A stretch of 64,000 nt of DNA from Octopus vulgaris. Its lineage: Eukaryota. The translations under genes and the position numbers were made by a program. The stretch is taken from assembly GCA_951406725.2 (NCBI GenBank), contig OX597815.1, positions 150,102,001-150,166,000 of the forward strand, given 5' to 3'. Below are positions 28,654 to 56,220 of this stretch, piece by piece. Within the stretch, counting starts at the first letter, position 1. Each line of letters starts with the position of its first letter. The notes under the pieces were generated by a model that searched no databases, was not told where the DNA came from, and saw nothing but the letters and a program-made list of their open reading frames with translations.

Positions 28654-28682
28654 AGATATATGACGACGATGGCGATCAGAGA

Positions 28683-28744
<62 letters not shown>

Positions 28745-28810
28745 ATGCATGTATATATTAAAGTATTTACGTATATACATGTATACATGCATATACATGT
28801 ATACTATTGA

Positions 28811-33183: not shown

Positions 33184-34261
33184 GATGTGATATATCTTGA
33201 CTTCAGAATAGCGTTCAACAGGGTTAATCATAATATCTTACTCTCAAAAGTGGCAAATGTTGCAATCCGTAGAAAAGTTCTACACTGGATTGAGTATTTC
33301 CTGGCGAATAAAACACAACATGTTGTGATCGATGGAGTCCACTCAAGCTCAGCAAAACTCATCAGTTGTGTACTTCAGGGAATTGTCTTGGGCCCGCTTG
33401 TCTTTATAATCTATATAAACGACGTTTCCAGCGCCGTAAAAAAATTAATCAGTGAAGAAGAAGACCAAACTCAACTCCAGTCTCATCTATATGCGGTAAG
33501 TCAATGGACAGACAAAAACAAAATGTAATTAAACGAAGGAAAATTTGAGCCGATGCATTTTGGAAGAAAGACTATACTTAAACATCCATGCTCTCTTCCT
33601 TCAGGGAAACAGCTCACAACATCTAATGATAGCAGGGACCTAGGAGTAATTGTTGACAACAATCTCAGATGAGTGCCCACATCAACAAAAAGGTCGATAT
33701 AGCTCGTACGATAAGCTCCTGGATTTTAAGAATCTTCTCGTCCAGAGAACAAGGTGTCATCATTCCACTTTTCTCCTCTTTTGTACGACCACACCTCGAA
33801 TACTGCTGCCCCCTGCACTCTCCCCATACAAAACAAAGCATGTGCACGATGTGGAGAATATACCCTCAGCATTGCCTAAACGACCTGAACATTAGCTTCA
33901 AGGTTCATCCAAGGCTGGGTACACGGGCCATACGTCCCCTGCTCAATTCAGGATCACAATATATAGTTACACTGTGACACATTTTCTTTTGCTCAACAGG
34001 CGCTGCCCTGTTTAACATTGTCCCAAAACTGATCAAAGAGTAAAAGGATCCCATCAACCTTAAACGGTGTCTAGACAAAATATTCAAGACAGGCCACCGT
34101 ACCTGGATACAACTCAATAAACAAGAACTCCCTACATGAATGCTCCAAGATAACACAAAACTTGACTATAAAAGGACTTAGATAATCCTATCAGGTGGTG
34201 CTATTAAGTTAGACATGGCCGGGACCAATTTTGGGAGGAAACATATCTAAATTTATCTAAA

Positions 34262-35665: not shown

Positions 35666-37186
35666 TCAAGTAATGTATGTTAGTACATATATGTCTATGA
35701 CAGTTCAATTCTGTATCAAATGTTTGCTTATAAATAATTGCGAAATTGTCTTTGTCTCTTTGTACGAATCTTATCCCGTTTGTATTAAGGTGTGTCTGTT
35801 TGTGGGGTTGTGAGTATCTTCCTGCATTCGTGTATAGTCAGTTTTGTTTTGCTTTTTGGTTTTTTTTATATATGTTTGTGCTGCTTTATTTCAAAGTTTT
35901 CCTGCTCAAAACTTACATCCCTTCTTAAATCCCCGCTGGAAATTTATTTATTCCACTTGATGACGTTTCACATTAGCTTCAGCTATTATTACGTTCCACC
36001 GCACCACCCTCTTCACTGCCTTCTACATTACATTTCTATCACAAATTTTCCTCTATACTTACAACACTTTATCAACAGCGCATATTCTTCAATATTATTT
36101 TTCAGATTCTTATTTCGTTCTCACCGATCCCATCAACAGCTTCAAAATTTCCTCGCTCCGATGAAAGGCAGCATCTTGTGGAATGCTTGAAATATGTCAA
36201 TCCCACTGGCACTGGCTTTTCTGGGTTTTAAGAAGTTATGGTGGAACACTTCCAGCAGTACACCACCAAACAGTCACTATAAAATTCTTTTTGAAGAGCT
36301 CGGGTTTAAGGATGGTTTATTTAATAAGGTGCTTTATTTTGGAACAACCACAGCGAAGAACGTATTTTTTATTATTGTACACATTCCACTTTTCATCGCA
36401 AGTTACAATAAAAAGCACTTTAATAAATACAAAATATATATTTTACAAAATAAATCATCTTAATAAATAAACCATCTTGCATTATTAGACAGACAATTTC
36501 AGATTTAAAAATATTTTTTTTTAGTTCAAAACTCTGCAAAAATCCGGTACAAATTGTTTACTTTTTACTCAACCTGATATACATGTTATAAGTATATGTG
36601 ATCGTGTGATGCCTTTAGTGAACCTAATAGATGCAGGAACTCGAAGTCGGTACCGCGTGTGATAGTGATTTAGTCAAATCTAAAACAGTATTTGATGAAT
36701 ATTACCTCCAGTTACTTTATGATTTTTATGGAATGAAAACAACTTGAGAAGAGTAGCTTCTTCGAGTTCTACTGTTAATTCTGCCATGTTGTTGCAAATG
36801 GCGCAGGACTGCCTGTTTGGTAAGAAGCTTGAATCCCAACTACATGGTTCTCAGTCGAATTCCGATCTGTGGTCTGCTCAGGTATGTAACCCGCTGTGCG
36901 GCTCCTCAGGTGTGTATCAGGCCAGCCAATGCATTCTGAGTGGATTTGATAGACGAAATGTGAAACAAGCCCATAGTACATATATTAATTTTTTAGTTTA
37001 TATATATACTAGCATTAAAGACCCTTCGTTGATGGGTCATAGTGCTAGTGCATGTATAAATGTGTATATATATGTGTAAATATTACATGTACATCTATAT
37101 ATATACATCTACACATAGAATACAAAATACAAAGTTATATCTTGATATCGCTAGTGATAACAATACTTAAAATATATAACAAACTG

Positions 37187-37476
37187 GAATTGTTAGCCCG
37201 TCTCTTGTAATTTCGATCAATTGTATCTTGTCCTCCCTCTTGTATAGAAGTGTGGCTTCAATCCAGCCTACCTCTACTTCTGGGGCGGCATTTAACTTTT
37301 TTTCCGGGACGGCCTACGTCCCAGATATAAAGGTAAAAATAAAATATTTCCACTTTGCAAGTTCGAGTCGAGTACTCCCTTGCACGCTCCGTTGACTATT
37401 ATGGCGAATTTACCGCCTCTGATTAGATATCTTTCATAGTCGCACCAATATTATTTTGGAAGGTGCTTTCCTCCAT
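37187..37476 (-). pseudogene. Decayed Tx1-type ORF1 fragment, directly next to the LINE tail
   Basis: Hand translation across frameshifts gives YLIRGGKFAII / NILFLPLYLGRRPSRK / APEVEVGWIEATLLYKREDKIQLIEI. These match YINRGKKYGTV / DIVLLPLYKGKRTSKI / PPNVEAEWIVAAVISGHEDEVDIL in the array ORF1s. Confidence 0.65.
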
Positions 37477-37724
37477 GTTGTTTTATTATTACCCACAAGG
37501 GGCGAACACAGATGGGACAATACATTCTGATGATGGGGTCAGACAAACGAATGGGTTTTTACAATAAATCGGGTTTAAAAATTTTCATGAATAACAATAA
37601 ATGGACAGAAATCGAGTGATAGGACAGACCGGAAGACATTACGGGTGGAGTGGGTGCGGGTTTAGCTCGGACCCCACGAGCCCCGCCTCCCCACTGATAC
37701 TTTTGGTTGCACTTGGTATTACAT

Positions 37725-40700
37725 TTATGTTGTAACTTTCATTCGCAACTTCCGTGCTACATCCTTCCATCGTTCTTCATACGCTCTCCTAGTCAGGCAT
37801 ATTCTCTCCAGCCCTATCTTCCTTTTCAGGTGAAAGATGAAATAATTCATCAAACCAGGGCCGGAGATGAACTTGCCTGACTGTAAACCTTTCATTCTCG
37901 TCTTCCATATCACCTCTTTCGCGATTGCTACTACAACGAGAAAACGAAACTTACCTTCATTCACGAGGAAATCCGGTGGGTCAATTTTTGTAATCGACTC
38001 AGTCGACAGCTGTACTCTTCGTGTACCTGACAACAGGTGTTCGGCATAAACCCACACCTCAGACACGTCCGGACAATGAACAATCGCGTGCGGGACGGTT
38101 TCCCTATCCCGCCCGCATCTTGGACATATCGGACTGTCTTGGCCACCGTGCCTTGCGAGTTTATCCCGAACAGGTAGAGCTCCTCTGTAGCATTGCCATG
38201 CCAGAGACTTCTGGAAGTTGTCCAGTGTCCTTGGCTCGAACGTACGTCGGAACAGACTGGCCAGCTGGTTATCGTCGAGACCTAGGGTTTCCCCCAAGGT
38301 ATCTTCACATTCCGCCTCTACCAACCCTCTATAGAAGAAAGTGGTGGAACCCCCACCGCAGGCGTTGCCCGAGCGACGGAATAGCAGGAGAGCCTTGCGA
38401 CACTCCGTGTACCAAGTACCAAGTTTCGATCTACGATTCAGCCAGGTTTCCCATCCACCGAAACTAGTGAACTTGGGAAACATCAGTTTTGCTAGCGAAG
38501 ACCACACCCGTTCACCATCCAGGTAGAGCCACAGATGTCTTAACCTCAGCGCATGTCTGCGCATCATCAGCCAAGGCATCCCTAGCCCACCCTTTAACGG
38601 TTGTTGACAGCAAGTAGAGCGTTTCACAAGTGGTTTCCCGCCCTTCCACAAGAAGTAGAAGAGCTGTCTTTCCAACTTGATCAACCACGAATCAGGGCAA
38701 GGAACGACGGAAAGGCGGTAGGTGATAACCGATGCGATAAACACATTGGCCACCTCCGCCCTCCCTTTCAGGGATAGCCACCGCCAAGACCAGGTCTTGG
38801 CTACTGCAGCCACCTTGCTCGTTACCTCGCCCCAATTCTTCTCTATTTGGAGGTCTGGACCGAACCAGACCCCTAGCAGTTTAATCGGACCCTCCGTCCA
38901 ACGTCCCACGACGCTGTCAGGAGGCATCGACTTGCCTCTCCAGGTGCCGAGTTGCAAGCCGACTGACTTTTCGCGATTAACTTTTGCTCCTGTCACCGTC
39001 TCGTACACCTCTATGGCCTTGCCTACTTTACATAGGTGGTCCATTTCGGTTACGATGATGGTGATGTCATCCGCGTACGCTGACACTGATTTTCCATTAC
39101 CTGGCTGTCTCGGGATGCCGCTCAGTTTTCGCAGTAATGGCTCAAGAGCCATCACGTACAAAAGCGGGGAGAGCGGACACCCTTGACGAACCGAGCGTTT
39201 GATTTTGAACGGCTTCGACAAGAAGCCGTTCACCCGAACTACCGAGTCGATGTTATCATAAATTTCGATAATCCACCTGAGGAATCCAAGGCTCAGCCCG
39301 AACTGTGCCAGGGCAGATACCAGGTAACGATGGTCGACCCTATCAAAAGCTTTAGATTGGTCTAAATGGACCAGTGCCCCACCCTTGCCAGAATCACTAT
39401 TAAACCCCTCTATAGTGTACCGCATTAGATGGAGATTATCCTGAATGGATCTGCCCGGAACGGCACATGTCTGTGCCCCTCCGATCAGACCATCCGCGAC
39501 ACGCGCCAATCTTTTCGATAGCACTTTGGCCAAAATCTTCAACTCTGTGTTTAGCAGAGTGATGGGCCTGAAATTATCAATGCACTCCCCTTGCTCGGGT
39601 CCTTTCTGACGAGAGTCACTACTCCCCGGCGCACAGATCTGGGTATAAGCCCGTTCTGCTGCCAGTTCGCGTAGACCTCCGCCAGTAGGTGCCCGAACAA
39701 GTCTGGCATACTCTTATATAACTCATAGGGTAGACCATCCAAACCCGGCGCCTTGCCCGCGCCGCAGTCCGCCATTGCCTCAACCACCTCCTCAGGCGTG
39801 ATTGGCCCTTCACAGCCCTCCGCATCTCGCCCCGATAAGCGCGGCAGACCGTCGAGTAGGTCCGTAAAGGCCCTCCTCCTATCCAGTCCGCCGCACTCAC
39901 CGAAAAGCTGAGCGAAGTGCTCCTGAAAGGCCTCACACATCTCCTCGGGTTCGTTTATCAACTCACCTTGTTGGTTCGTCAAAGATCGAATCGTGGCATC
40001 GTTACCATGCTGAGCTTCCACCACTCGGGCCCATCTCACGGCGTTGATTCCTTCACATCCCATATGACGGATTCTAGCCCTGACAATGCAGCCCATGTGT
40101 TTGGCCTCGAGGTGCTGGTTTAACACCAGTCTCTTGGCCGCCACCTGAGCCGCAGAGCCAGTTTTCATGGCTTCCTCTAATTCCTTAACTAGAGTAGTTT
40201 CCCTTCTAGCCTCTCTAGCCACTACTCCTATGCTATATCTAATAGACTCAAACTTGATGGCTCGTTTGAGGGCGTACCACCATTTGTTATTAATGATGGT
40301 ACCAGATAGTGCCCTCTGAATTATATCCCTAATCCGGTCTTTGTACTCCTTAATCGCCAAAAGGGACGTATTAAGTTTCCAGTAACCGGATCCTCTATTT
40401 TTAACCTTATCTATTTCAAGCTTACAAGTGACCATTTTATGATCACTGTAGCTGATCGGGTAAAACTGTGGACACTTAGCTATTTTACTGTCTACTTTTC
40501 TAATTAGTATTCTATCTAGATACGACCTGGAAGATCCGTCGCTGTTTGACCATGTCCACAATGGAGCGTTCGGAAATTCCAGCCTATAAGGATCTGCTAG
40601 CTCAAAGCGGCTTAGCAGTTCCATGAAGCCACTGTTGCCTTTTCTATCTGGACACGAGCCAACATAATCTACATCCGCTTTGCAAATTGTGTTAAAGTCT

Positions 40701-41119
40701 CCTAGCACCACTAATGAATGCGAAGTACCAAGAAAGTTTTCTAGTTCACGAAAATAATCACTTTGCCCTGTATGGTTGGGTGCGTAAATTGCAACCAGTC
40801 TGATAACTTTACCATTACTGAACGTCAAATCCATGACGACCAGCCTACCTTCTGGATCTGCAAAAATTAACTTTTTCTCAGAAACCCGGTTTCTTTTTAA
40901 TAGGACCAACACCCCACTCCCGCCTGTAGGACTGCCAGGAGAGAAAAAACTCTCGTAGCCGTCAAACAGCGGGAGTAGACCTCTTGGCCCCTCTAGCCGG
41001 GTTTCTGTAGCAACAATAACATCTAAATTACGCGACCTGATATCATGCAGGAAGCGACCTTGCTTCCAGCCTGCTCCCAGGCCGCGCACATTTAAACAAC
41101 CAACATAAATGTAATCCAT
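37725..41119 (-). CDS. Tx1 ORF2: APE endonuclease + reverse transcriptase + C-terminal zinc finger (one -1 frameshift at ~39587-39590)
   Basis: APE: LNVRG, ETRL, YAPN, GDFN, LDRI, SDH. RT: KAPGLDG, DQSKAFDRVDH, RQGCPLSP, YADD. Zinc finger: CPRC..ETVPHAIVHC. Adding one G to a G-run restores KGECIDNFRPITLLNTELKIL (about 1131 aa). Confidence 0.92.
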
Positions 41120-41128
41120 TACTTACCT

Positions 41129-42507
41129 TTATATCAGTGGTTCGGTTTTTTCTTCTTCTTCCTTCTCTTTTTCTGGGCCTCGTGGGGGAGTCTGACGTAG
41201 GCCCTCGAATATATGTGGAGATGTTACATCCAACCTAAGTGGGCCTACGTCATGGAAGAATTCTGACTTTATCCGCCCGTAATCCTTCCGGTCTATTTTG
41301 TAAAATTCCAAAGTCATTTTTTTTCTCTACTTTCTTCACATTGGCCATGGCTGCCAACACGTTTCCGAGTCTGCTATTTGATGCTTTTACGGCCATATAT
41401 GAGTTCATTGACTCTTTTTTCTTTTTTAAAATTACTCTGGGAGGGGTGGTTTCCGTTTTTCTTTTTTTTTTCCGATAATTTTTGCCCACCCCTCCCTATT
41501 TATCTTTTCTTCGCTCTTTTTTTCCTCCGCCGCTGGTTCTGCTGTTACCATCACCTCCACACCTTCAGTCTTCCCATCTGGGCCGTCTGACGCTGCTTCT
41601 GGTGACACATTGTCTTCTTTTCCTTTTGGCTTAGGTGCTTCCTGCGGTTTGGGTTGGGGCTGGCATTCCGCCCTTACATGCCCCTTCTTACCGCAGCCGA
41701 AGCACCTCGGCTTTCTGCCCTCTACGAAGACTGTGACTCTTTCATCTTCGCTTATCCTAAGAGTCTCTGGGATCTCTTCCAGGGTTTGTACTTCTGCTTG
41801 TATGGCTATTATTATCTTTTGCCCTTTCCAGAATTCTTCTTCTTCTACGGTGGCCTGGAGGATGTTTATTTTTTCCTCCAGGCCTACCATAACTGCTGCC
41901 ACTAGGACTTCGGCATCCGCTTCTGGCGGGATGTTGTTCATAGTGATTTTGGAAGTTCTCTTGCCTTTATACAGGGGTAGGAGAACAATATCCTCCGCTT
42001 TTATGGGTTCCATGGATAGCTTCTTCGCTACCTCCTCTGACGTGAATCTCACCTCCACTGTGCCGTATTTCTTCCCTCGATTGATATACGTAATTTTATC
42101 CATTATTGGCTTTAAGCAGTTTTCAATCTTTTTCTCCTCTATTTTTTGGATTGCTCTGTTTGTTATACTGAATGTCTTATAGATTATTCTCCTATTCGAA
42201 ATATCCTCCTGTATTTGGGCGTTTGAAGCCACGGTTACTTCCGTGCCCTCTTTTGACACACAGTCCGCATGTTTTCCCAGGTTGTCCACGTTAATTTTTT
42301 TAATTTTCTTCCCAGCCACTTCAGCGAATTTTTTTGCTGGAGTTGATGCTGGTACTGGTTTTACCATTTTCTTGGGCGACGCCGCCTCTTTTTCTTCGGC
42401 GACAGCGCCTCTTTTTTTCTTGGCGACAACGCCTCTTTTTTACTTGGCGACAACGCCGGGTATTCATCCTCGCTCGTCACGGGCGAATAAGTGATGGGGG
42501 ACTCCAT
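41129..42507 (-). CDS. Tx1 ORF1 nucleic-acid-binding protein (RRM-like region + CX2CX4HX4C knuckle), with homopolymer frameshifts
   Basis: VFVEGRKPRCFGCGKKGHVRAEC. The likely start is MESPITYSP at 42507. Frame changes fall in A-runs at ~42390, ~41465 and ~41320. Confidence 0.85.
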
Positions 42508-42739
42508 TTTGAACAAATGGCTTTAACAAGCCTTTGGTAATCTAAATTGATTGTAGTTTTCCCCCACTGAGGGGGGAACACCAACGCGAAGTCTTCGCGC
42601 GAAGGTTGACTTCGTCCGTTAGACAACAATGGACAAAAAAAGGTAGACCAACAGTATATAATAACAGAGATAAGTAGTATGAGAGCAAAAATATATATCA
42701 ACTTACTAATAACGCAAAAAATTGATTTCCGCCATGTGA

Positions 42740-44504
42740 TTTTATTACTACCCACAAGGGGCGAACATAGAGGGGACAATACAATCGGGGAACTTAAAAT
42801 AAGAAAGCGAAATGACAAGAAAAGGAAAAAATAAAAGTAAAAATGACAAATGAAAGAATATTTACAATGAGATGCAAATGCCCACTCGATCCCCGGAATC
42901 GAGAGGTTACATTTTCGTCACATATAGTTCACAATTTTTTTTTCCTTTTTCTCTTCTTTCTTCTCTCTCTCTCACAGTCTCAAACGTATTCCATGATAGT
43001 TTTCAATTCTCTAAAGTCTATCACTGAGCCCTCAGGCAGCCGCTCTTCATTCGAACACTCGTGTAGAAAAATTACACTCTCTCCGGCTGCTCTGAGGAAC
43101 TCAGCGACTCTTTCTTCGGGGATTAGAGCAGTCTCCTGCCACCGATCAGTCATCCTGTTGACCCACACATGTCCCTCCGTACTACATGTCAATTCCCTCA
43201 TTTCGGGGCTGAAATGGAAGGTTATTAACTTGTAGTAATCCTGCTTCCGTCCCACGCTCTCTCTCGTTTCTCCTTTCGGGCTCACCTCTTCCTTGCTCTC
43301 CTCCCTTTGCTTCTCTCTTTCTCTCCCTTTGCCCTCCTTTCCTTCTCCTTCCTTCTCTTGTCCTTTTGGTTCCTTGTCTGTTCTCTCCCTCTCTCGTGTT
43401 TTATGTTCCTCTTCCTTTTCCTCTTGTGTGCCGTCCCTTCTTTTCGTTTGATTCCGATCTCTCTCTTGTTTTTTTCCTGTTGTTTCCCTTTCCTTTTTCC
43501 TTTCCTGACTCTGCCTTGGTTCCACTTCTTTCCCTTCCCTTATTTCTTCTTCCTTCATTGACTTATTATTTCCCTTCTCTTGTTGTTTTGTCTCCCTTTC
43601 CATGCTTTCCCCTTCATCTACCGTATTCTTCTTTTCGAGTTCCTGCTCGCACTCCGCTACGAATTCGTATAACGGGCACTCTTTTTTAATGTGCCCCCTT
43701 GTCCCGCACAAGTAGCAGTTTGGCTTTCTTCCCTCTACAATTACACTGAGGGTTTTCTCATCTTCGATTTCTATTCTATAGGGGAACCTTTCAATGTCCT
43801 CTTTTGTGGCCATCAAACACAGTTCTACCCCATATCCTCTCCAGTTTATCACGTTGGACTCCTTAAAGGATTCCACCTCCACTTCCTCTTCTGCTGCTCC
43901 TAGAATAGCTGTTGCCAGCCATTCTGTTTTTACTTCTGGGGGTATATTCGGGATTTTAACCCGGACCCCTCTTCTTCCCTTGTATGAGGGCCACATTATA
44001 AATGTTTCCGCTCTTAGAACAGTGGTAGCCAGTGAGGCTGCAATTTCTTCCGTTGCATATCTCACCTCCACCGTACCAAATTTTTTCCTCTACTCACGTA
44101 GGTCGATTTATCCATTATGTCTCCCAGACATTTTTCGATCTCTGCTATCTCCACTCTTGCCAGTTTCTTTGTACTTTTGTCTGGGTTCTATATGTTACAG
44201 TCTTGTTTTCTTTGTCCTCTTTTGCTTTCGCGGGGATTAGCTTCACGCTATCACCCTCCCTTTTGAATAGCTTTTCATATTCTTTGAGTTTACTCTTCTC
44301 AAAGAAAACATCCTTCACGATTATTGCCGAATCATTATTATTCTTTCCCGTGACCCCCGCGTAAGTCGCCATGACTAGAGGGTCAATTCACCTTCTTCGG
44401 AAGGTTTCCACACGTGGAGGCAAACGCCTCGCGCGATATTAATCACTTTACACAACAAAATTTCAACGTCTAATCACAGATAACAACACGTATAGCTTGG
44501 AGCC
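42740..44504 (-). mobile_element. ORF1-only unit, family A
   Basis: Has its own 5' UTR, a single ORF1-like gene and the LINE-type tail at 42741-42780. No ORF2 sequence. Confidence 0.85.
42980..44372 (-). CDS. ORF1-like zinc-knuckle protein, family A (two frameshifts in A-runs near 44085 and 44175)
   Basis: MATYAGVT..IEKCLGDIMDKSTYVSRGKKFGTVEVRY..VIVEGRKPNCYLCGTRGHIKKEC, then an E/K/R-rich linker. Confidence 0.8.
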
Positions 44505-44510
44505 ATGTGA

Positions 44511-46239
44511 TTTCTTTATTACCCACTAAGGGGCTACGAAGAATGGCGGACATAACAAAACATGGGGACATAGAACATTATAATTAAACTTTATGAACAT
44601 GAATTGTTAAACGAAAAAAATGATAAAATGAAAGCGATACCAACGGCCCCGTCCGTCAGCATCACTTACCTGTCCTTTGTTTTTCATAGTCACTTGAATG
44701 TTCTTTGTCAATACGAATAAATTCCATATCCATTCTTACTCCGAAATACTCATCCATATTTTCCACGAATTCATCGCTCATTCTTATATCTTTCACCTCC
44801 CAATTCTCCCTTTCACACCTCCCCATAAACTCACCTATGTTCTTCTTTTCAATCACAGCATACCTAGTCTCTCCAACATCATACCATTTATACTCTTCCA
44901 TTAGACTTTTAACTTCTTTCTGTTCAGTCATAGTACAAATGTACGGCCTGGGTTCGATTTCAATCTCTTGTGTGTGTGTATTCTTTTTTTTCTTTTGTTT
45001 TCTTGTTGGGGGGGAGCGGGTGGGTTCAATGTCTGCATGGATAGGGTGGGACTCAGAGGGTGTGGGTGGTTTTGGGGTAGATTGGAGTTCCATATTATTT
45101 TCTTTTTTTCCACGTATTCTTCTCTTCCTCTTACTTCCAGCTTCCTTCCATTTCTGTGTATTCTCTTCCTCTGTTTCCTTCTCCTCTGGTTCGGAATCCA
45201 TTTCTTTCCCTGGGGGAGGGCAGAAGGCTCTTATGTGACCCCTCAGGCCACACTTGTAACAACGTGGAGCCCTGCCCTCCACCCACACTCTCATGATCAC
45301 TTCTCCCAGTCTGATGCTTTCCGTCAGGTCCACCAGTACCTCGGTCTCTGCCTGTACGTTCAGCTCCACTGTTACGCCTCTCCAGCCCTCGGACTTAACC
45401 GAGGCATGGAGAATATCCACTTCGTCCTCGTGGCCGCTGATCACAGCCGCCACAATCCATTCTGCCTCCACGTTTGGTGGCACTCCCTCCACCCTTATTC
45501 GTGTAATCCTCCTGTTTAAATACGTAGGTAACAGTGTTACCTTTTCCGACTTCACCGCCTTCGCTGCCATCTTCCTCGCTGCAGATTCACTTTTAAAGTG
45601 CACAACTACGGTCCCGTACTTGGATCCTCGAGTCAGAAAATTTATTTCCTCCTCAGTTCTTCGCAGGGCTTCCTCTATCCATTCCATGGTTACAACTTCT
45701 ACCCTCTTCCTTTCGTTTGCGAACACCCTGTAAACAATGGTCCTCTTATCATACCATTCTTTTCTCCTGGGTGTCGGTGACAGTTCCACCTCACCGCTTT
45801 CCCTTTTCATGTATTTCTGGTAACTTGGCAACTTGGCCATGTCGACCCCTTTCTCTTCCGCCTTCTTGGTTACACCGGCATAGGTATAACCCAGCTTCTG
45901 ATCCATTTTCCTTGCTGCCATTTCTAGCTCCTTCTCAGATGTAGACAAGTCTGATAAAGACTCGAAAACTCCAGCCTTTTCCTCCATCAGCTTCACTGCA
46001 ATTGCCTGTTCCAGTTCCTCATCTGTCGTGGACAAGTCTGTTAGAGACTCATAGTCCATTTCCTTCTGTCTGACAGACCGAAAACGGCCGCCAAAACAGA
46101 AAAAGTGTAACGCGCTGAACGAGCGAAACGCGAAACCGCGTCAACGCCGTTCAGAATTTCCACAACAACAACAACGCTTTTTGTTCTTTTTTACCGAATT
46201 TTCAGGAGCCGAAAAAAAAAACACGGAGCCGAAAAAACC
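44511..46239 (-). mobile_element. ORF1-only unit, family B (copy 1)
   Basis: Tail at 44511, a single ORF, and 5' end GGTTTTTTCGGCTCC. Confidence 0.88.
44662..46059 (-). CDS. ORF1-like zinc-knuckle protein, family B, intact 465 aa
   Basis: TYAGVTKK, RGSKYGTV, LLPTYLNRR, VWVEGRAPRCYKCGLRGHIRAFC. Confidence 0.88.
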   Translation of the reverse strand: MDYESLTDLSTTDEELEQAIAVKLMEEKAGVFESLSDLSTSEKELEMAARKMDQKLGYTYAGVTKKAEEKGVDMAKLPSYQKYMKRESGEVELSPTPRRKEWYDKRTIVYRVFANERKRVEVVTMEWIEEALRRTEEEINFLTRGSKYGTVVVHFKSESAARKMAAKAVKSEKVTLLPTYLNRRITRIRVEGVPPNVEAEWIVAAVISGHEDEVDILHASVKSEGWRGVTVELNVQAETEVLVDLTESIRLGEVIMRVWVEGRAPRCYKCGLRGHIRAFCPPPGKEMDSEPEEKETEEENTQKWKEAGSKRKRRIRGKKENNMELQSTPKPPTPSESHPIHADIEPTRSPPTRKQKKKKNTHTQEIEIEPRPYICTMTEQKEVKSLMEEYKWYDVGETRYAVIEKKNIGEFMGRCERENWEVKDIRMSDEFVENMDEYFGVRMDMEFIRIDKEHSSDYEKQRTGK

Positions 46240-46245
46240 ACGTGA

Positions 46246-47912
46246 TTTTTTATTACCCACAAGGGGCCAACGAAGAGGGGGACATTACAAGACATGGGGA
46301 CATGGAACATCACAATTACATATATATGAGCAAAATGGAATATGAAAATGATATATGAGAGCGATACCGACGGCCCCATCCGCCAGCATCACTTATCTGT
46401 CCTTCTTCACCCATTTTCAATTAGTATTCCTGTTTCACCTATCACAACATTCGTTTTTCTTTTAGCCCTCTCTATCCATTCATCTTTCATTTCCACTGAC
46501 TTCCAACACACACCCTCTTCCTCTAACCTTGTCGCCAATATACCCGTATCATCACTATCCACAGCCGTGTAGCTCCAATCTTCGTGTTCGTACCACTTGG
46601 TTAACACCAGTTTTTTAACGTTTTGTATGTCTTTCCCTTGTATAACACATAAAAAATGGGTCTTGGGACTTTCTTTGCTCTGTGTGTCTGTTTTTATTTT
46701 TCTTGTAGGCGGGGAGTGGGTGGAATTACTGTTTGCAGGGGAAGGATGGGACTCCAAGGGTATGGGTGGTGTCGGGGTGGGTTGGGGCTTCGCACAGTTT
46801 TTCTTTTCCTTCTTTTTCTCTTTGTTCCCGCTTCTTTCCACTCTTGTTGCATCTCCTCTTCTTCTGTCGTTTCCTTCTCTGTTTGTTTCTGTTTATTTTC
46901 TTCCTCTCCCGAGGCTTCCTCAACGCTTTCCTTTTCTTTTTCCTTTGGTGGGGGAGGGCAGTAGGCTCTTATGTGACCCCTTTGGCCACACTTGTAGCAC
47001 CTGGGCGCCCTACCCTCCACCCACACTCTCATAATAATATTTCCAGTTTTTATGCTGTCCGTAATCCTCTCTATAACATCCGCCTCCGCTTGAATGTTCA
47101 TAACTAGTGTGGCACCTCTCACGCCTTCATACTTCATAATGGCGTGGAGGATGTCCACTTTATCTTCATTTCCTTTTATAACCGCAGCCGTTATTAATTC
47201 GCCCTCTAGGTGTGGAGGTATTCCCTCCACCCTAATTCTAGTTGTCCGCCTATTCAGATACGAGGGTAACAAGTAAATCTTTTCTGTACTCACCACCTTG
47301 GCTGCTACATTCCTGGCTGCTTTTTCGCTTTTAAATTGCACCGTTATCGTTCCGTATTGTAATCCTTTTGTCATGTACACAATTTCCTCTCCCGTCTGCT
47401 TGAGAGCCTCTTCAATTGCTTCCATGTTGATTACTTCCATCTTTCTACCTCCATTCATAAATACTTTATATTTAATGGTTCTACGATGGAACCAGTCTCC
47501 GCGCCCTACTGGATGCAGCAGCTCGACTTCACCGTTCTCGTCCTCCTTCACAAACTCCTGGAGGCCCGCCAACTTAGCCAAGTCTATCTCTCTTTCCGTT
47601 GACTTCTTCGTTACACCTGCGTAGGTGCCTTCCATCTTTTTCACCGCCAACTCCTCCTCAGATGTCGATACTTCCGTCGAAATTTCAGAGTAAATTCTCC
47701 CTTCCATCTCCTCCGCTTGATGGAGGCGGCTCATAGTCGCCTCCGGCCGAGAAACGGCCTCCCGAACCGAAAAAGTGTAACGCGCAGAACCAGTGAGACG
47801 CGAAACCGCATCAACTATGTTCAAAATTTTACAACAACAACCATTCACTTTTTGTTCTTTTTTCTTTTTACCGAATTCCACAGAGAGCAAAAAACACAGA
47901 GCCGAAAAAACC
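46246..47912 (-). mobile_element. ORF1-only unit, family C (copy 1); ORF 47734-46407 with a frameshift at ~46800
   Basis: Near-identical to 47919-49585. Tail at 46246. Confidence 0.88.
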
Positions 47913-47918
47913 ACGTGA

Positions 47919-49585
47919 TTCTTTATTACCCACAAGGGGCCAACGAAGAGGGGGACATTACAAGACATGGGGACATGGAACATCACAATTACATATATAT
48001 GAGCAAAATGGAATATGAAAATGATATATGAGAGTGATACCGACGGCCCCATCCGCCAGCATCACTTATCTGTCCTTCTTCACCCATTTTCAATTAGTAT
48101 TCCTGTTTCACCTATCACAACATTCGTTTTTCTTTTAGCCCTCTCTATCCATTCATCTTTCATTTTCACTGACTTCCAACACACACCCTCTTCCTCAAAC
48201 CTTGTCGTCAATATACCCGTATCCTCACTATCCACAGCCGTGTAGCTCCAATCTTCGTGTTCGTACCACTTGGTTAACACCAGTTTTTTAACGTTTTGTA
48301 TGTCTTTCCCTTGTATAACACATAAAAAATGGGTCTTGGGACTTTCTTTGCTCTGTGTGTCTGTTTTTGTTTTTCTTGTAGGCGGGGAGTGGGTGGAATC
48401 ACTGTTTGCAGGGGAAGGATGGGACTCCAAGGGTATGGGTGGTGTCGGGGTGGGTTGGGGTTTCGCACAGTTTTTCTTTTTCTTTCTCTTTCTCTTTGTT
48501 CCCACTTCTTTCCACTCTTGTTGCATCTCCTCTTCTTCTGTCGTTTCCTTCTCTGTTTGTTTCTGTTTATTTTCTTCCTCTCCTGAGGCTTCCTCAACTC
48601 TTTCCTTTTCTTTTTCCTTTGGTGGGGGAGGGCAGTAGGCTCTTATGTGACCCCTTTGGCCACACTTGTAGCACCTGGGCGCCCTACCCTCCACCCACAC
48701 TCTCATAATAATATTTCCAGTTTTTATGCTGTCCGTAATCCTCTCTATAACATCCGCCTCCGCTTGAATGTTCATAACTAGTGTGGCACCTCTCACGCCT
48801 TCATACTTCATAATGGCGTGGAGGATGTCCACTTTATCTTCATTTCCTTTTATAACCGCAGCCGTTATTAATTCGCCCTCTAGGTGTGGAGGTATTCCCT
48901 CCACCCCAATTCTAGTTGTCCGCCTATTCAGATACGAGGGTAACAAGTAAATCTTTTCTGTACTCACCACCTTGGCTGCTACATTCCTGGCTGCTTTTTC
49001 GCTTTTAAATTGCACCGTTATCGTTCCGTATTGTAATCCTTTTGTCATGTACACAATTTCCTCTCCTGTCTGCTTGAGAGCCTCTTCAATTGCTTCCATG
49101 TTGATTACTTCCATCTTTCTACCTCCATTCATAAATACTTTATATTTAATGGTTCTACGATGGAACCAGTCTCCGCGCCCTACTGGATGCAGCAGCTCGA
49201 CTTCACCGTTCTCGTCCTCCTTCACAAACTCCTGGAGGCCCGCCAACTTAGCCAAGTCTATCTCTCTTTCCGTTGACTTCTTCGTTACACCTGCGTAGGT
49301 GCCTTCCATCTTTTTCACCGCCAACTCCTCCTCAGATGTCGATACTTCCGTCGAAATTTCAGAGTAAATTCTCCCTTCCATCTCCTCCGCTTGATGGAGG
49401 CGGCTCATAGTCGCCTCCGGCCGAAAACGGCCTCCCGAACCGAAAAAGTGTAACGCGCAGAACCAGTGAGACGCGAAACCGCATCAACTATGTTCAAAAT
49501 TTTACACCAACAACCATTCACTTTTTGTTCTTTTTTCTTTTTACCGAATTTCACAGAGAGCAAAAAACACAGAGCCGAAAAAACC
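47919..49585 (-). mobile_element. ORF1-only unit, family C (copy 2)
   Basis: Tail at 47919 and a single intact ORF. Confidence 0.88.
48080..49408 (-). CDS. ORF1-like zinc-knuckle protein, family C, intact 442 aa
   Basis: TYAGVTKK, KGLQYGTI, LLPSYLNRR, VWVEGRAPRCYKCGQRGHIRAYC. Confidence 0.88.
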   Translation of the reverse strand: MSRLHQAEEMEGRIYSEISTEVSTSEEELAVKKMEGTYAGVTKKSTEREIDLAKLAGLQEFVKEDENGEVELLHPVGRGDWFHRRTIKYKVFMNGGRKMEVINMEAIEEALKQTGEEIVYMTKGLQYGTITVQFKSEKAARNVAAKVVSTEKIYLLPSYLNRRTTRIGVEGIPPHLEGELITAAVIKGNEDKVDILHAIMKYEGVRGATLVMNIQAEADVIERITDSIKTGNIIMRVWVEGRAPRCYKCGQRGHIRAYCPPPPKEKEKERVEEASGEEENKQKQTEKETTEEEEMQQEWKEVGTKRKRKKKKNCAKPQPTPTPPIPLESHPSPANSDSTHSPPTRKTKTDTQSKESPKTHFLCVIQGKDIQNVKKLVLTKWYEHEDWSYTAVDSEDTGILTTRFEEEGVCWKSVKMKDEWIERAKRKTNVVIGETGILIENG

Positions 49586-49591
49586 ACGTGA

Positions 49592-51237
49592 TTCTTTATT
49601 ACCCACAAGGGGCCAACGAAGAGGGGGACATTACAAGACATGGGGACATGGAACATCACAATTACATATATATGAGCAAAATGGAATATGAAAATGATAT
49701 ATGAGAGTGATACCGACGGCCCCATCCGCCAGCATCACTTATCTGTCCTTCTTCACCCATTTCCAATTAGTATTCCTGTTTCACCTATCACAACATTCGT
49801 TTTTCTTTTAGCCCTCTCTATCCATTCATCTTTCATTTCCACTGACTTCCAACACACACCCTCTTCCTCAAACCTTGTCGCCAATATACCCGTATCATCA
49901 CTATCCACAGCCGTGTAGCTCCAATCTTCGTGTTCGTACCACTTGGTTAACACCAGTTTTTTAACGTTTTGTATGTCTTTCCCATGTATAACACATAAAA
50001 AATGGGTCTTGGGACTTTCTTTGCTCTGTGTGTCTGTTTTTATTTTTCTTGTAGGCGAGGAGTGGGTGGAATTACTGTTTGCAGGGGAAGGATGGGACTC
50101 CAAGGGTATGGGTGGTGTCGGGGTGGGTTGGGGCTTCGCACAGTTTTTCTTTTTCCTTCTTTTTCTCTTTGTTCCCGCTTCTTTCCACTCTTGTTGCATC
50201 TCCTCTTCTTCTGTCGTTTCCTTCTCTGTTTGTTTCTGTTTATTTTCTTCCTCTCCCGAGGCTTCCTCAACGCTTTCCTTTTCTTTTTCCTTTGGTGGGG
50301 AGGGCAGTAGGCTCTTATGTGACCCCTTTGGCCACACTTGTAGCACCTGGGCGCCCTACCCTCCACCCACACTCTCATAATAATATTTCCAGTTTTTATG
50401 CTGTCCGTAATCCTCTCTATAACATCCGCCTCCGCTTGAACGTTCATAACTAGTGTGGCACCTCTCACGCCTTCATACTTCATAATGGCGTGGAGGATGT
50501 CCACTTTATCTTCATTTCCTTTTATAACCGCAGCCGTTATTAATTCGCCCTCTAGGTGTGGAGGTATTCCCTCCACCTAATTCTAGTTGTCCGCCTATTC
50601 AGATACGAGGGTAACAAGTAAATCTTTTCTGTACTCACCACCTTGGCTGCTACATTCCTGGCTGCTTTTTCGCTTTTAAATTGCACCGTTATCGTTCCGT
50701 ATTGTAATCCTTTTGTCATGTACACAATTTCCTCTCCTGTCTGCTTGAGAGCCTCTTCAATTGCTTCCATGTTGATTACTTCCATCTTTCTACCTCCATT
50801 CATAAATACTTTATATTTAATGGTTCTACGATGGAACCAGTCTCCGCGCCCTACTGGATGCAGCAGCTCGACTTCACCGTTCTCGTCCTCCTTCACAAAC
50901 TCCTGGAGGCCCGCCAACTTAGCCAAGTCTATCTCTTCCGTTGACTTCTTCGTTACACCTGCGTAGGTGCCTTCCATCTTTTTCACCGCCAACTCCTCCT
51001 CAGATGTCGATACTTCCGTCGAAATTTCAGAGTAAATTCTCCCTTCCATCTCCTCCGCTTGATGGAGGCGGCTCATAGTCGCCTCCGGCCGAGAAACGGC
51101 CTCCCGAACCGAAAAAGTGTAACGCGCAGAACCAGTGAGACGCGAAACCGCATCAACTATGTTCAAAATTTTACAACAACAACCATTCACTTTTTGTTCT
51201 TTTTTCTTTTTACCGAATTTCAGGAGCCGAAAAAACC
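49592..51237 (-). mobile_element. ORF1-only unit, family C (copy 3); ORF 51076-49753 with frameshifts at ~50575 and ~50300
   Basis: Near-identical to C1 and C2, but the 5' tip is B-like. Confidence 0.85.
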
Positions 51238-51240
51238 GTA

Positions 51241-51609
51241 TTTCTTTATTACCCACTAAGGGGCTACGAAGAGCGGCGGACATAACAAAACATGGGGACA
51301 TAGAACATTATAATTAAACTATATGAACATGAAGTGTTAAACGAAAAAATGATAAAATGAAAGCGATACCAACGGCCCCGTCCGTCAGCATCACTTACCT
51401 GTCCTTTGTTTTTCATAGTCACTTGAATGTTCTTTGCCAATACGAATAAATTCCATATCCATTCTTACTCCGAAATACTCATTCATATTTTCCACGAATT
51501 CATCGCTCATTCTTATATCTTTCACCTCCCAATTCTCCCTTTCACACCTCCCCATAAACTCACCTATGTTCTTTTTTTCAATCACAGCATACCTAGTCTC
51601 TCCAACATC
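51241..51609 (-). mobile_element. 5'-truncated family B unit (3' ~370 bp only)
   Basis: B tail plus the ORF C-terminus (..EKKNIGEFMGRCERE..KQRTGK*). Breaks at ~51609 directly into the next tail. Confidence 0.85.
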
Positions 51610-51610
51610 T

Positions 51611-53376
51611 CTTTTTTTTATTACCCACTAAGGGGCTACGAAGAATGGCGGACATAACAAAACATGGGGACATAGAACATTATAATTAAACTTTATGAAA
51701 ATGAATTGTTAAACGAAAAAATGATTAAATGAAAGCGATACCAACGGCCCCGTCCGTCAGCATCACTTACCTGTCCTTTGTTTTTCATAGTCACTTGAAT
51801 GTTCTTTGCCAATACGAATAAATTCCATATCCATTCTTACTCCGAAATACTCATCCATATTTTCCACGAATTCATCGCTCATTCTTATATCTTTCACCTC
51901 CCAATTCTCGCATTCACACATCACCATAAAGTCACCTATGTTCTTCTTTTCAATCACAGCATACCTAGTCTCACCAACATCATACCATTTATACTCTTCC
52001 ATTAAACTTTTAACTTCTTTCTGTTCAGTCATAGTACAAATGTACGGCCTGGGTTCGATTTCAATCTCTTGTGTGTGTGTATTCTTTTTTTTTCTTTTGT
52101 TTTCTTGTTGGGGGGAGCGGGTGGGTTCAATGTCTGCATGGATAGGGTGGGACTCAGAGGGTGTGGGAGGTTTTGGGGTAGATTGGAGTTCCATATTATT
52201 TTCTTTTTTTCCACATATTCTTCTCTTCCTCTTACTTCCAGCTTCCTTCCATTTCTGTGTATTCTCTTCCTCTGTTTCCTTCTCCTCTGGTTTCTGCTTC
52301 TCTCTCTCTGGTTCGGGATCCATTTCTTTCCCTGGGGGAGGGCAGAAGGCTCTTATGTGACCCCTCAGGCCACACTTGTAACAACGTGGAGCCCTGCCCT
52401 CCACCCACACTCTCATGATCACTTCTCCCAGTCTGATGCTTTCCGTCAGGTCCACCAGTACCTCGGTCTCTGCCTGTACGTTCAGCTCCACTGTTACGCC
52501 TCTCCAGCCCTCGGACTTAACCGAGGCATGGAGAATATCCACTTCGTCCTCGTGGCCGCTGATCACAGCCGCCACAATCCATTCTGCCTCCACGTTTGGT
52601 GGCACTCCCTCCACCCTTATTCGTGTAATCCTCCTGTTTAAATACGTAGGTAACAGTGTTACCTTTTCCGACTTCACCGCCTTCGCTGCCATCTTCCTCG
52701 CTGCAGATTCACTTTTAAAGTGCACAACTACGGTCCCGTACTTGGATCCTCGAGTCAGAAAATTTATTTCCTCCTCAGTTCTTCGCAGGGCCTCCTCTAT
52801 CCATTCCATGGATACAACTTCTACCCTCTTCCTTTCGTTTGCGCACACCCTGTAAACAATGGTCCTCTTGTCATACCATTCCTTTCTCCTGGGTGTCGGT
52901 GATAGTTCCACCTCACCGCTTTCCTTTTTCATGTATTTCTGGTAACTTGGCAACTTGGCCATGTCGACCCCTTTCTCTTCCGCCTTCTTGGTTACACCGG
53001 CATAGGTATAACCCAGCTTGTCTTCCAATTTCCTTGCTGCCATTTCTAGCTCCTTCTCAGACGTAGGCAAGTCTGATAAAGACTCGAAAACTCCAGCCTT
53101 TTCCTCCATCAGCTTCACTGCAATTGCCTGTTCCAGTTCCTCATCCGTCGTGGACAAGTCTGTTAGAGACTCATAGTCCATTTCCTTCTGTCTGACAGAC
53201 CGAAAACGGCCGCCAAAACAGAAAAAGTGTAACGCGCTGAACGAGCGAAACGCGAAACCGCGTCAACGCCGTTCAGAATTTCCACAACAACAACAACGCT
53301 TTTTGTTCTTTTTTACCGAATTTTCAGGAGCCGAAAAAAAAAAAAAAAAAAAAAAAAACACGGAGCCGAAAAAACC
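51611..53376 (-). mobile_element. ORF1-only unit, family B (copy 2)
   Basis: Tail at ~51611 and an intact ORF at 51763-53181. Confidence 0.88.
51763..53181 (-). CDS. ORF1-like zinc-knuckle protein, family B, 472 aa
   Basis: Near-identical to 44662-46059, with a 7-aa insertion (EREKQKP). Confidence 0.88.
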   Translation of the reverse strand: MDYESLTDLSTTDEELEQAIAVKLMEEKAGVFESLSDLPTSEKELEMAARKLEDKLGYTYAGVTKKAEEKGVDMAKLPSYQKYMKKESGEVELSPTPRRKEWYDKRTIVYRVCANERKRVEVVSMEWIEEALRRTEEEINFLTRGSKYGTVVVHFKSESAARKMAAKAVKSEKVTLLPTYLNRRITRIRVEGVPPNVEAEWIVAAVISGHEDEVDILHASVKSEGWRGVTVELNVQAETEVLVDLTESIRLGEVIMRVWVEGRAPRCYKCGLRGHIRAFCPPPGKEMDPEPEREKQKPEEKETEEENTQKWKEAGSKRKRRICGKKENNMELQSTPKPPTPSESHPIHADIEPTRSPQQENKRKKKNTHTQEIEIEPRPYICTMTEQKEVKSLMEEYKWYDVGETRYAVIEKKNIGDFMVMCECENWEVKDIRMSDEFVENMDEYFGVRMDMEFIRIGKEHSSDYEKQRTGK

Positions 53377-53379
53377 GTA

Positions 53380-55142
53380 TTTCTTTATTACCCACTAAGG
53401 GGCTACGAAGAGCGGCGGACATAACAAAACATGGGGACATAGAACATTATAATTAAACTATATGAACATGAAGTGTTAAACGAAAAAATGATAAAATGAA
53501 AGCGATACCAACGGCCCCGTCCGTCAGCATCACTTACCTGTCCTTTGTTTTTCATAGTCACTTGAATGTTCTTTGCCAATACGAATAAATTCCATATCCA
53601 TTCTTACTCCGAAATACTCATTCATATTTTCCACGAATTCATCGCTCATTCTTATATCTTTCACCTCCCAATTCTCCCTTTCACACCTCCCCATAAACTC
53701 ACCTATGTTCTTTTTTTCAATCACAGCATACCTAGTCTCTCCAACATCATACCGTTTATACTCTTCCATTAGACTTTTAACTTCCTCTGTTCAGTCATAG
53801 TACAAATGTACGGCCTGGGTTCGATTTCAATCTCTTGTGTGTGTGTATTCTTTTTTTCTTTTGTTTTCTTGTTGGGGGGGAGCGGGTGGGTTCAATGTCT
53901 GCATGGATAGGGTGGGACTCAGAGGGTGTGGGAGGTTTTGGGGTAGATTGGAGATCCATATTATTTTCTTTTTTTCCACATATTCTTCTCTTCCTCTTAC
54001 TTCCAGCTTCCTTCCATTTCTGTGTATTCTCTTCCTCTGTTTCCTTCTCCTCTGGTTTCTGCTTCTCTCTCTCTGGTTCGGGATCCATTTCTTTCCCTGG
54101 GGGAGGGCAGAAGGCTCTTATGTGACCCCTCAGGCCACACTTGTAACAACGTGGAGCCCTGCCCTCCACCCACACTCTCATGATCACTTCTCCCAGTCTG
54201 ATGCTTTCCGTCAGGTCCACCAGTACCTCGGTCTCTGCCTGTACGTTCAGCTCCACTGTTACGCCTCTCCAGCCCTCGGACTTAACCGAGGCATGGAGAA
54301 TATCCACTTCGTCCTCGTGGCCGCTGATCACAGCCGCCACAATCCATTCTGCCTCCACGTTTGGTGGCACTCCCTCCACCCTTATTCGTGTAATCCTCCT
54401 GTTTAAATACGTAGGTAACAGTGTTACCTTTTCCGACTTCACCGCCTTCGCTGCCATCTTCCTCGCTGCAGATTCACTTTTAAAGTGCACAACTACGGTC
54501 CCGTACTTGGATCCTCGAGTCAGAAAATTTATTTCCTCCTCAGTTCTTCGCAGGGCCTCCTCTATCCATTCCATGGATACAACTTCTACCCTCTTCCTTT
54601 CGTTTGCGCACACCCTGTAAACAATGGTCCTCTTGTCATACCATTCCTTTCTCCTGGGTGTCGGTGATAGTTCCACCTCACCGCTTTCCTTTTTCATGTA
54701 TTTCTGGTAACTTGGCAACTTGGCCATGTCGACCCCTTTCTCTTCCGCCTTCTTGGTTACACCGGCATAGGTATAACCCAGCTTGTCTTCCAATTTCCTT
54801 GCTGCCATTTCTAGCTCCTTCTCAGACGTAGGCAAGTCTGATAAAGACTCGAAAACTCCAGCCTTTTCCTCCATCAGCTTCACTGCAATTGCCTGTTCCA
54901 GTTCCTCATCCGTCGTGGACAAGTCTGTTAGAGACTCATAGTCCATTTCCTTCTGTCTGACAGACCGAAAACGGCCGCCAAAACAGAAAAAGTGTAACGC
55001 GCTGAACGAGCGAAACGCGAAACCGCGTCAACGCCGTTCAGAATTTCCACAACAACAACAACGCTTTTTGTTCTTTTTTACCGAATTTTCAGGAGCCGAA
55101 AAAAAAAAAAAAAAAAAAAAAAAACACGGAGCCGAAAAAACC
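53380..55142 (-). mobile_element. ORF1-only unit, family B (copy 3); ORF 54946-53530 with frameshifts at ~53850 and ~53785
   Basis: Near-identical to B2. Its 5' end is the 5' end of the whole array. Confidence 0.88.
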
Positions 55143-56220
55143 GACCTTTTTCCTCTACATTCTATACTTTATAGACAATAGACTTTTCTTTAATTTCATT
55201 TTTTATTATCCATCTGGATTATTCCATTTCTGCACACTAATTTTATTTTTAATTTATTCCCATTCATGTGAAACCACTTATTCAAGTTCAAGTCATTGAT
55301 GCAATTTTATACCAATTGCTATTTTTACTTTTGTTATGTTACGATTATATTATACTTTAGTTTGATTTTGATTATTACTTACTACATAAAACTCAATTGT
55401 TATTATTATTTTTATTGTTAAAGTGAAATCATCTGACATAAAATAGAGAAGTGTATTTGTTTCGCTTTTAACACGTAATACTGAAAAATGGAGAAGATAT
55501 GATATTGCTACGGGCTCGCTCTAGGCAAGAAGTTGAACATTTTTTTGCCCATGAAACTACATGGACCCTAAGTAAGGCATGTGTAAACTTTGAATGAAAT
55601 TGGTTGTTTAGTTCTCAAGTTTTAGGGAAACACACAGACAGACAGACAGCCATTCTCAGTTTTATATGTATAAAGATATATATATACATATATATATGTA
55701 GATATATGCATGCATATATATATACTTATATGTATATATATATATATGTATGTATGTATGTATGTATTGTATATATATCCACATATGTATACATATACTG
55801 TATATGTATATACTTATATACATGCATATACTGTAAATATATATATATTAATCAACCGACAACTGGTGTTGGTGTGTTTGCGTCACCGTAGACTAACATT
55901 TCTGCAATAGAGACGGATATTGTTGGTTTCTAAAACCAAAAGATAAATAAATAAATAAATAAATGCTGAGCCCAATTCGTTCAGCTAAAACTCTTCATGG
56001 CGATGCACCAGCAATTGTCTTAATTCAATGGCTGAAACAAGTATGAAATATATGCTTTTACTCTAAAATTAGATTACTAAACAGAAGGTGAAACTATGTG
56101 GAGCAGTGATTTGTTATAATGTATTTTCTTCTACGGAGCCATACGATAATCATGGATATAATATATGCAAGCGAACATAACGATGAAAACCTTTGAATTG
56201 AAATGTTAGTTAAATGTTTA

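Follow-up and report, generated by a model that had tools for sequence, protein, structure and literature searches.

Probable Tx1-type LINEs that keep only ORF1 form trains at one site in a Helitron-like repeat of Octopus vulgaris

Introduction

Non-autonomous long interspersed nuclear elements (LINEs) that keep their first open reading frame (ORF1) are known from several clades, with HeT-A (Jockey), HAL1 (L1) and Ag-Sponge (CR1) as examples (PMC5786205, PMC5753468), and PMC5786205 names no Tx1-derived case. We describe a train of such elements in Octopus vulgaris, in a window of 64,000 nucleotides (assembly GCA_951406725.2, contig OX597815.1, positions 150,102,001 to 150,166,000), where eight ORF1-only passenger units of three families, A, B and C, stand head to tail with one Tx1-type LINE, L. 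The passengers are probably HAL1-like non-autonomous LINEs of Tx1-type lineage that stack by sequential insertion. Like HAL1 and Ag-Sponge they consist of a 5' untranslated region (UTR), ORF1 alone and a LINE 3' tail, and would need the ORF2 of a partner; unlike them, they make up at least three deep lineages, are predicted to encode an RRM-RRM-CCHC protein, are site-specific and are stacked. HAL1 proper derives from vertebrate L1 and has a type II ORF1 (coiled coil-RRM-CTD), a class that the octopus protein, with its two modelled RRM folds and CCHC knuckle, does not fit.

HeT-A, TART and TAHRE of Drosophila telomeres offer a second likeness, as they form mixed head-to-tail arrays, all in one direction, of gag-only elements and partners encoding reverse transcriptase (RT), grow on the 5' side and show negative selection on gag (PMC5537684). 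They belong to the Jockey clade, sit at chromosome ends and serve a host function, whereas the octopus trains lie inside a putative DNA transposon, carry target duplications and are interstitial, on many contigs; the window itself lies 150.1 Mb into a contig of 215.6 Mb. In Drosophila, TART is directed to telomeres by HeT-A Gag (PMC5537684).

Tx1-type machinery acting on non-autonomous DNA transposons has been described for SINEU-3/Tx1-Mar of crocodilians and for Xenopus Tx1 in Tx1D, and the SINEU-3/Tx1-Mar passengers accumulated one after another as tandem insertions about a duplicated target (PMC4494074). SINEU-3, however, is a non-coding short interspersed nuclear element (SINE) that targets Mariner or piggyBac, whereas the octopus passengers encode selected proteins, have a Helitron-like target and build trains that reach 14-21 units, with two ordered end classes. 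Zepp self-inserts. Zepp and ZeppL of green algae resemble the octopus trains in that LINE copies gather in local clusters, and differ in being autonomous, centromeric and of one family (PMC9940879). L1-Tx1 is reported to be among the families expanded in coleoids, with none of these particulars given (PMC8967140). A search of literature listings, with Repbase, Dfam and supplements outside its scope, returned no Tx1-type ORF1-only family, Helitron-targeted train or fixed ADAR-edited cephalopod LINE copies; parts of the system may therefore already be catalogued in those resources. Each ingredient has precedent, and the combination and its scale are absent from the literature searched. The system bears on why a LINE parasite keeps an ORF1 of its own, and on whether ORF1 or ORF2 picks the target.

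The array and its insertion site

The 17.7-kb train occupies 37480-55142 on the minus strand. Its unit borders were set by a shared 3' tail ending CCCCTT(A)GTGGGTA(A/G)TAA, present in nine copies and thus delimiting nine units, which read B1, B2, truncated b, C1, C2, C3, B4, A and L in transcription order. From 5' to 3', with the flanks, the features are:

55143-55676, minus strand: host repeat, 5' portion; non-autonomous Helitron-like by its ends, beginning TC after A
53378-55142, minus strand: unit B1, ORF1-only; ATG at 54946, frameshift in the A-rich linker, 383 aa
51613-53377, minus strand: unit B2; intact ORF1 at 53181-51763, 472 aa
51239-51612, minus strand: unit b, a 5'-truncated B; over its final 369 nt it differs from B1 at 0 positions and from the adjoining B2 at 15
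49590-51238, minus strand: unit C1; ATG at 51076, frameshifted
47917-49589, minus strand: unit C2; intact ORF1 at 49408-48080, 442 aa
46244-47916, minus strand: unit C3; ATG at 47734, one frameshift near 46811
44510-46243, minus strand: unit B4; intact ORF1 at 46059-44662, 465 aa
42740-44509, minus strand: unit A; ORF1 from the ATG at 44372, frameshifted; LINE-type head and tail
43143-43618, minus strand: A>G cluster within unit A, 50 A>G and 0 T>C on the sense strand
37480-42739, minus strand: LINE L, Tx1-type, 5.26 kb; ORF1 from 42507, frameshifted; ORF2 at 41119-37725
37009-37479, minus strand: host repeat, 3' portion; begins with the target word ACATGG and ends with a subterminal hairpin and CTAG, followed by T

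The first-pass annotation had reported an eight-unit, three-family array on one strand behind an autonomous LINE, and much of that description holds. The nine tails delimit real passengers and a real LINE, full passenger units measure 1.65-1.77 kb, and the open frames of 472 (B2), 442 (C2) and 465 aa (B4) stand, with B1, C1, C3 and A frameshifted. The passengers are also free of ORF2 remnants, as claimed: two intact ORF2 proteins searched by tblastn against 42740-55142 gave a best E of 0.47. In transcription order, however, the passengers stand 5' of the LINE and not behind it, and the supposedly bare joints of 3-6 nt are junctions carrying a target-derived word of 4-8 nt, ACATGG or CG(T)GG. 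The LINE tail ascribed to the passengers is shared with L over the last ~45-50 nt and not beyond; against the window LINE, A matches at 91% over 46 nt and C at 84-85% over 40-44 nt, and the B tail gives no match at E 1e-3. Nor could the resident LINE, in its assembled form, work as a helper: relative to an intact genomic copy there are indels in ORF1 and one in ORF2, which encodes an apurinic-type endonuclease (APE), RT and zf-RVT with one frameshift near 39590.

Overlooked in the earlier annotation was a dispersed repeat that the train splits, leaving one half on each flank. The part 3' of the LINE gave 2,012 candidates at first look, and among the 11 best other copies seven are empty, running on upstream (six at length) into the sequence that in the window precedes B1, while in four a LINE or B-type tail adjoins the repeat at exactly the position seen in the window. 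Because the empty copies join both flanks, the whole train interrupts a single element. In the 2.8-Gb genome, exact junction patterns found 125 empty and 121 filled sites (controls, 0), the two patterns being unequal in strictness, so that "about half filled" is a rough figure. Passengers and LINE occupy one site in this repeat. At the window's 5' host/B1 junction the target bases ATTTGAACACATGG are missing, and the B head there comes after GAAAAAGG.

Non-autonomous Helitrons are marked by a 5' TC, a 3' CTAG, a subterminal hairpin and insertion between A and T without target site duplication. Empty host copies are 1.0-1.2 kb long and carry a 6-bp subterminal hairpin; four of the five examined have the form A-TC...CTAG-T, and the fifth gave its 3' end only. 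By these marks the host repeat appears to be a non-autonomous Helitron-like element of ~1.1 kb. A target in an RNA gene was considered and rejected, as an Rfam scan of 35,000-58,000 returned nothing at gathering score. L3, another LINE family, and the ORF1-only family A2 insert into the same Helitron-like repeat at other positions, and older ORF1-only copies of a further type, E (loci L079, L090, L100), have in common an upstream repeat of another kind, which suggests a separate target.

Homopolymer indels are many. Even so, an artefact of assembly hardly deserves credence: the units of the array differ in sequence, an intact half of the host repeat bounds the train at either end, and trains built in this way occur on many contigs, where empty sites can be set beside them.

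Dispersed ORF1-only families under selection

The families A, B and C, all ORF1-only, are scattered through the genome and show purifying selection. Each is found on many contigs, mostly at 90-99% identity; exact ORF1 motifs number 173 for B, 90 for A and 119 for L, and B/C 3' UTRs number 389. The window train is one of more than 100 in the genome, and unit order varies from locus to locus, so the structure is not confined to the window. Of the first 100 B/C matches, 79 lie within 4 kb of another, in runs of up to 14, and ~21 A motifs line up at even spacing on contig C7 (motif positions only). The trains examined hold further ORF1-only families, D, E, F, A2 and G. Copies are not always in trains, a point the first-pass annotation had left to be scored: solo A, B, D and L copies exist between host halves. 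Such solo copies, together with 5' truncations and A>G editing of single units, show units moving on their own through RNA. The shared 3' tail pattern itself has 94,648 matches genome-wide.

A degenerate pattern for the VEGR-P-C knuckle had 1,893 genomic matches against 0 for its reversed control, so the array is not a product of chance. ORF2 follows at nine of the first 30 of these loci and not at the other 21. The possibility that A, B and C are merely the 5' halves of ordinary LINEs was addressed in the first 94.75 Mb of contig C1, by setting 90 knuckle motifs (family labels read by eye from the motif string) against an ORF2-start pattern. An ORF2 begins 0.3-1.4 kb further on at none of the 46 A-, B/C- or E-type motifs, at 23 of 26 of the autonomous L, L4, L5 and L6 and at 1 of 17 unassigned; L3 scored 0/1, though it has an ORF2 by tblastn. 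Within this sample, A, B and C do not turn out to be such halves.

Core ORF1 identity is low between passengers and LINEs (B-L 33%, C-L 33%, A-L 35%, B-L2 35%, L2 being a second autonomous family) and among passengers (B-C 59%, B-A 32%). In a FastTree phylogeny of 222 columns (one row, the LINE ORF1 "F_C8_37", disregarded) the ORF1-only sequences fall into three clades, B/C/D/G (support 0.99), A/A2 (0.99) and E (1.0). None is nested in a sampled autonomous family, and the B clade is sister to L+L2 (0.94). This separation, with the 33-35% core identity to L, bears out the earlier statement that the passengers are not deletion derivatives of their neighbour. The ratio of nonsynonymous to synonymous substitution (dN/dS), which had been proposed as a check, is far from neutral: 0.18 for C/D (bootstrap 0.09-0.32), 0.11 for B/G (0.065-0.17), 0.09 for A/A2 and 0.12 for E/E2, a comparison that covers the protein outside its C-terminal domain and assumes ORF1-only ancestors for each pair. 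Two autonomous pairs gave 0.11 and 0.03. Family D is a composite, C-like in its core (90%) and B-like in its C-terminal domain. On contig C10 at 43.60 Mb (locus L151:1670-3330) a LINE ORF1 piece is fused to the 3' part of an A2, with an internally deleted LINE nearby, and this chimera points to ORF1-only forms arising by template switch.

The ORF1 of B2 consists of two predicted RRM folds, a CCHC knuckle, a charged linker and a C-terminal domain of ~90 aa. An AlphaFold model of B ORF1, made with an alignment of 68 sequences, has high confidence for residues ~70-290 and matches tandem RRM proteins (IMP3 RRM12, E 5e-5; La RRM, Z 9.5, root-mean-square deviation (rmsd) 2.5, 81 aligned residues), and weak Pfam matches place one CCHC knuckle after the RRMs. 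The passenger ORF1 is thus modelled as RRM-RRM-CCHC; no Pfam match to Transposase_22 appears at E 0.1. RRM plus CCHC defines a type I ORF1, consistent with Tx1 (PMC5203782). The C-terminal domain of the B protein also folds confidently (pLDDT 84), and no known structure resembles it clearly (best Z 5.3, rmsd 3.5, 73 residues aligned; nothing from Foldseek at E<=0.001), which does not show a new fold.

Candidate helpers and two end classes

LINE L has traits of the Tx1 clade: APE, RT and a C-terminal zinc domain in ORF2 (Pfam Exo_endo_phos 4e-14, RVT_1 8e-31, zf-RVT 7e-9) and a target-sequence preference, the last common but not universal in the clade. Its ORF1 fits type I (RRM + CCHC), with the fold modelled on the B homologue. 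The RT is 35% identical over 421 aa to a protein named "Transposon TX1 149 kDa", a comparison with named proteins; the best named RT relative is from Argonauta, and the nearest solved structure to the ORF2 is human L1 ORF2p. Copies of L (loci L050, L052, L062, L107-L122) keep ORF2 at 95-100% identity and the ORF1 region at 79-99%, a variation suggestive of repeated 5'/ORF1 replacement. L3, L4 and L5 (loci L123, L124, L131, L125-L126) also form or join head-to-tail tandems.

L2 (locus L129:1040-6260), with ORF1 and ORF2 both intact, is 72% identical to L in ORF2 and differs in the endonuclease hairpin loop. Its two ends, head and tail, are of the B type, and in one train it stands foremost, within the B zone. 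For B, C, D and E the better-scoring match over the final 90 nt is L2, and for A and A2 it is L, with F a tie; the C tail matches L2 at 93% over 44 nt. The resident LINE had been called the helper, and for B and C head and tail fit L2 better, so L is probably not their parent type. A LINE is present in only 15 of 38 B-containing clusters and missing from 23, and where present in trains it can be internal or doubled. This, with the solo A, B, D and L copies, makes the LINE dispensable in cis; a regenerated target site, in place of the concatenation behind one LINE first proposed, would better account for trains that often lack any LINE.

The ends fall into two classes. L, A and A2 have a target-like word at the start and AATAAAA at the end, whereas the heads of B, C, D and E read GTCG(T/C)G-Tn and the ends of B, C and D are AAAGAAAT or close variants. 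B-group units lie 5' of A/L in 14 of 14 mixed trains examined and in 15 of 15 motif clusters on contigs C1-C10, two overlapping sets, of which the clusters were scored by B motif only.

Growth of the trains

In the mechanism that we favour, ORF2, with its endonuclease and RT, would be borrowed in trans through the conserved ~45-nt 3' tail, to judge from sequence. It would nick the site and then reverse-transcribe one RNA; a short duplication and the target-like head would rebuild the site at the new 5' junction, and the next unit would land upstream, so that a train grows 5'-ward, one unit at a time. With L, A and A2 the ACATGG site would persist. The earliest B-group unit to arrive (B, C, D or E, with L2-type head and GAAAT tail) would swap it for GGTCG(T/C)G-Tn, after which only B-group units would be added. 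ORF1 may be kept to package its own RNA in cis and help capture scarce ORF2, and some RNAs may be hyper-edited by ADAR before reverse transcription. In the window, L at the 3' end would then be the oldest insertion, B4 the first B-group unit added 5' of A, and B1 the youngest.

Local target words are repeated in the junctions, and the history of each unit is separate. Identical words precede A/L heads in 15 of 42 within-train pairs and in 55 of 699 between-train pairs (p=3e-4, with 9 of 48 rows left out as mis-parsed). On contig C1 at 108.56 Mb a private ATCTGG variant recurs in the host 3' half, at the A/L junction and at the B/A junction, and at 118.74 Mb another private variant is found at the 5' junction and all four internal ones, with A units of different subclades. 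Some internal junctions repeat 20-70 nt of the upstream host half, private changes included, which places the newer unit 5'. At a site outside the Helitron-like repeat on contig C2, five C units are parted by a 20-nt local word, with a variant only at the 5' junctions. These local flank duplications and locus-private words uphold the earlier suggestion that new units join the 5' ends of older ones.

Could a whole train instead arise in a single event, by end-to-end template jumping, with the junction words being simply the 5' heads of the RNAs? R2 template jumps in vivo have been described (PMC3414825), the LINE-ORF1/A2 chimera on contig C10 shows template switching, and unit b, identical to B1-type RNA, meets B2 without a target word, like joints after truncated units elsewhere. 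Its 0 mismatches to B1 against 15 to B2 also mean that unit b is not a local duplication of B2. Against template jumping stand words that are private to a locus across units of different families and subclades, and junctions that repeat 20-70 nt of local upstream flank with its private changes; we consider it unlikely as the general explanation. Units with an internal twin-priming-like inversion also occur inside trains (loci L049-L050, contig C1 74.68 Mb; locus L122).

We give still less weight to trains made mainly by tandem duplication through unequal exchange, or carried whole as Helitron cargo. Homogeneous runs do exist: units 2-5 at contig C2:158.83 Mb differ by 0-0.5%, the C copies at contig C1:142.95 Mb cluster in the tree, and the ~21 A motifs on contig C7 are evenly spaced. 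Yet mixed-family order differs from locus to locus, and B units diverge equally within trains (2.6%, 43 pairs) and between them (2.7%, 363 pairs); for A the values are 2.6% and 3.5%. At contig C2:158.83 Mb itself the 5' unit has 84 A>G relative to its neighbour and therefore passed through RNA. As for cargo, host halves match the window mostly at 83-95%, B and LINE ORF2 at 92-100%, which argues that insertion came after host dispersal.

Sequential insertion with borrowed ORF2 also has findings to contend with. C units diverge by 1.8% within trains against 4.1% between, so some C runs are local duplicates, and the junctions lacking a target word after truncated units fit template jumping. L2 is rare, with 11 young tails only, and eight of nine L2-type copies examined lie outside the Helitron site, in varied places where several show duplications of 14-18 nt; B and C may instead be served by L or an L variant. 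The order of end classes is broken by an L-related LINE with a B-type tail 5' of D (contig C10:43.6 Mb), by another that, at a site outside the Helitron on contig C22, stands 5' to a B,B pair, and by an L-like element 5' of L2. Many passenger copies are broken (intact: B 14/48, C 11/21, D 6/13, E 5/13), no A is intact end to end among 21, and dS is saturated for B/C and near saturation for several others.

The repeated re-entry at unique non-Helitron sites fits a different idea, which we consider rather unlikely, that the ORF1-only families are aiming subunits, in which ORF1 or the RNA head steers a weakly specific L2-type ORF2, from a family itself scattered, to the 5' ends of family members. 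The first-pass annotation had suggested that the passenger ORF1s could be alternative targeting subunits, or else dominant-negative regulators. If so, the passenger and not the endonuclease would set the target, in a likeness to HeT-A Gag and TART inside chromosomes, and ADAR edits written into the germline would be an RNA-editing-driven mutator of the ORF1 radiation. Several selected ORF1-only families, two candidate helpers differing in ends and endonuclease loops, and ~125 empty and 121 filled sites with trains that record insertion order make up a natural test set for such questions.

Probable RNA editing fixed in DNA

Six of 122 ORF1-only copies, in both genome orientations, have clustered A>G changes on the sense strand, and appear to carry ADAR-type hyper-editing fixed in DNA. 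Their A>G:T>C counts are 50:0 (the window's unit A, 43143-43618, minus strand), 56:0, 36:0, 22:0, 68:3 and 80:0. Beyond the window, A>G clusters with ADAR neighbour bias in single copies were noted at loci L082 and L106, contig C3 113.97 Mb, contig C8 37.45 Mb and contig C2 158.83 Mb. Two flagged copies with many transversions (14:4 and 27:8) were not counted. No such cluster was found in LINE segments (0/24 ORF2, 0/7 ORF1). Over the 312 edited sites of the six copies the editing rate is 0.06 after G against 0.35-0.36 after A or T (p=1e-26), and avoidance of a 5' G is a conserved ADAR rule; hyper-editing in Octopus is reported to be exceptionally high (PMC5625713). G is enriched as 3' neighbour (0.33 vs ~0.2, p=3e-7), as in vertebrates, whereas invertebrate ADARs are reported to prefer A there, by a measure that differs from ours (PMC5625713).

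Editing ends at unit borders, and this confinement to single units means that each unit came from its own RNA. Two edited B copies have 23-30 sites in common with another copy. Within unit A no long internal inverted repeat explains the edited span. The edited copies would indicate that a cephalopod ADAR acts on retroelement RNA that is later copied into inherited DNA, and they would preserve past RNA editing as fossils in the DNA, with the editing itself a candidate defence of the host.

Other elements

At the three loci examined among the matches of the shared 3' tail pattern (L064, L065, L066) a SINE-like element with a tRNA-like head, in which ARAGORN found no tRNA gene, is present as a full copy followed by tandem 184-nt copies that start inside the head; it is probably a Tx1-dependent SINE re-entering its own head. 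Elsewhere in the window, fragments of an unrelated RT-encoding LINE family lie at 28656-30467 and 33160-33528 on the plus strand and at 3114-3614 on the minus strand, and a degraded fragment with a zf-RVT-like C-terminus at 6872-8373 (minus strand) is likely an older Tx1-type element.

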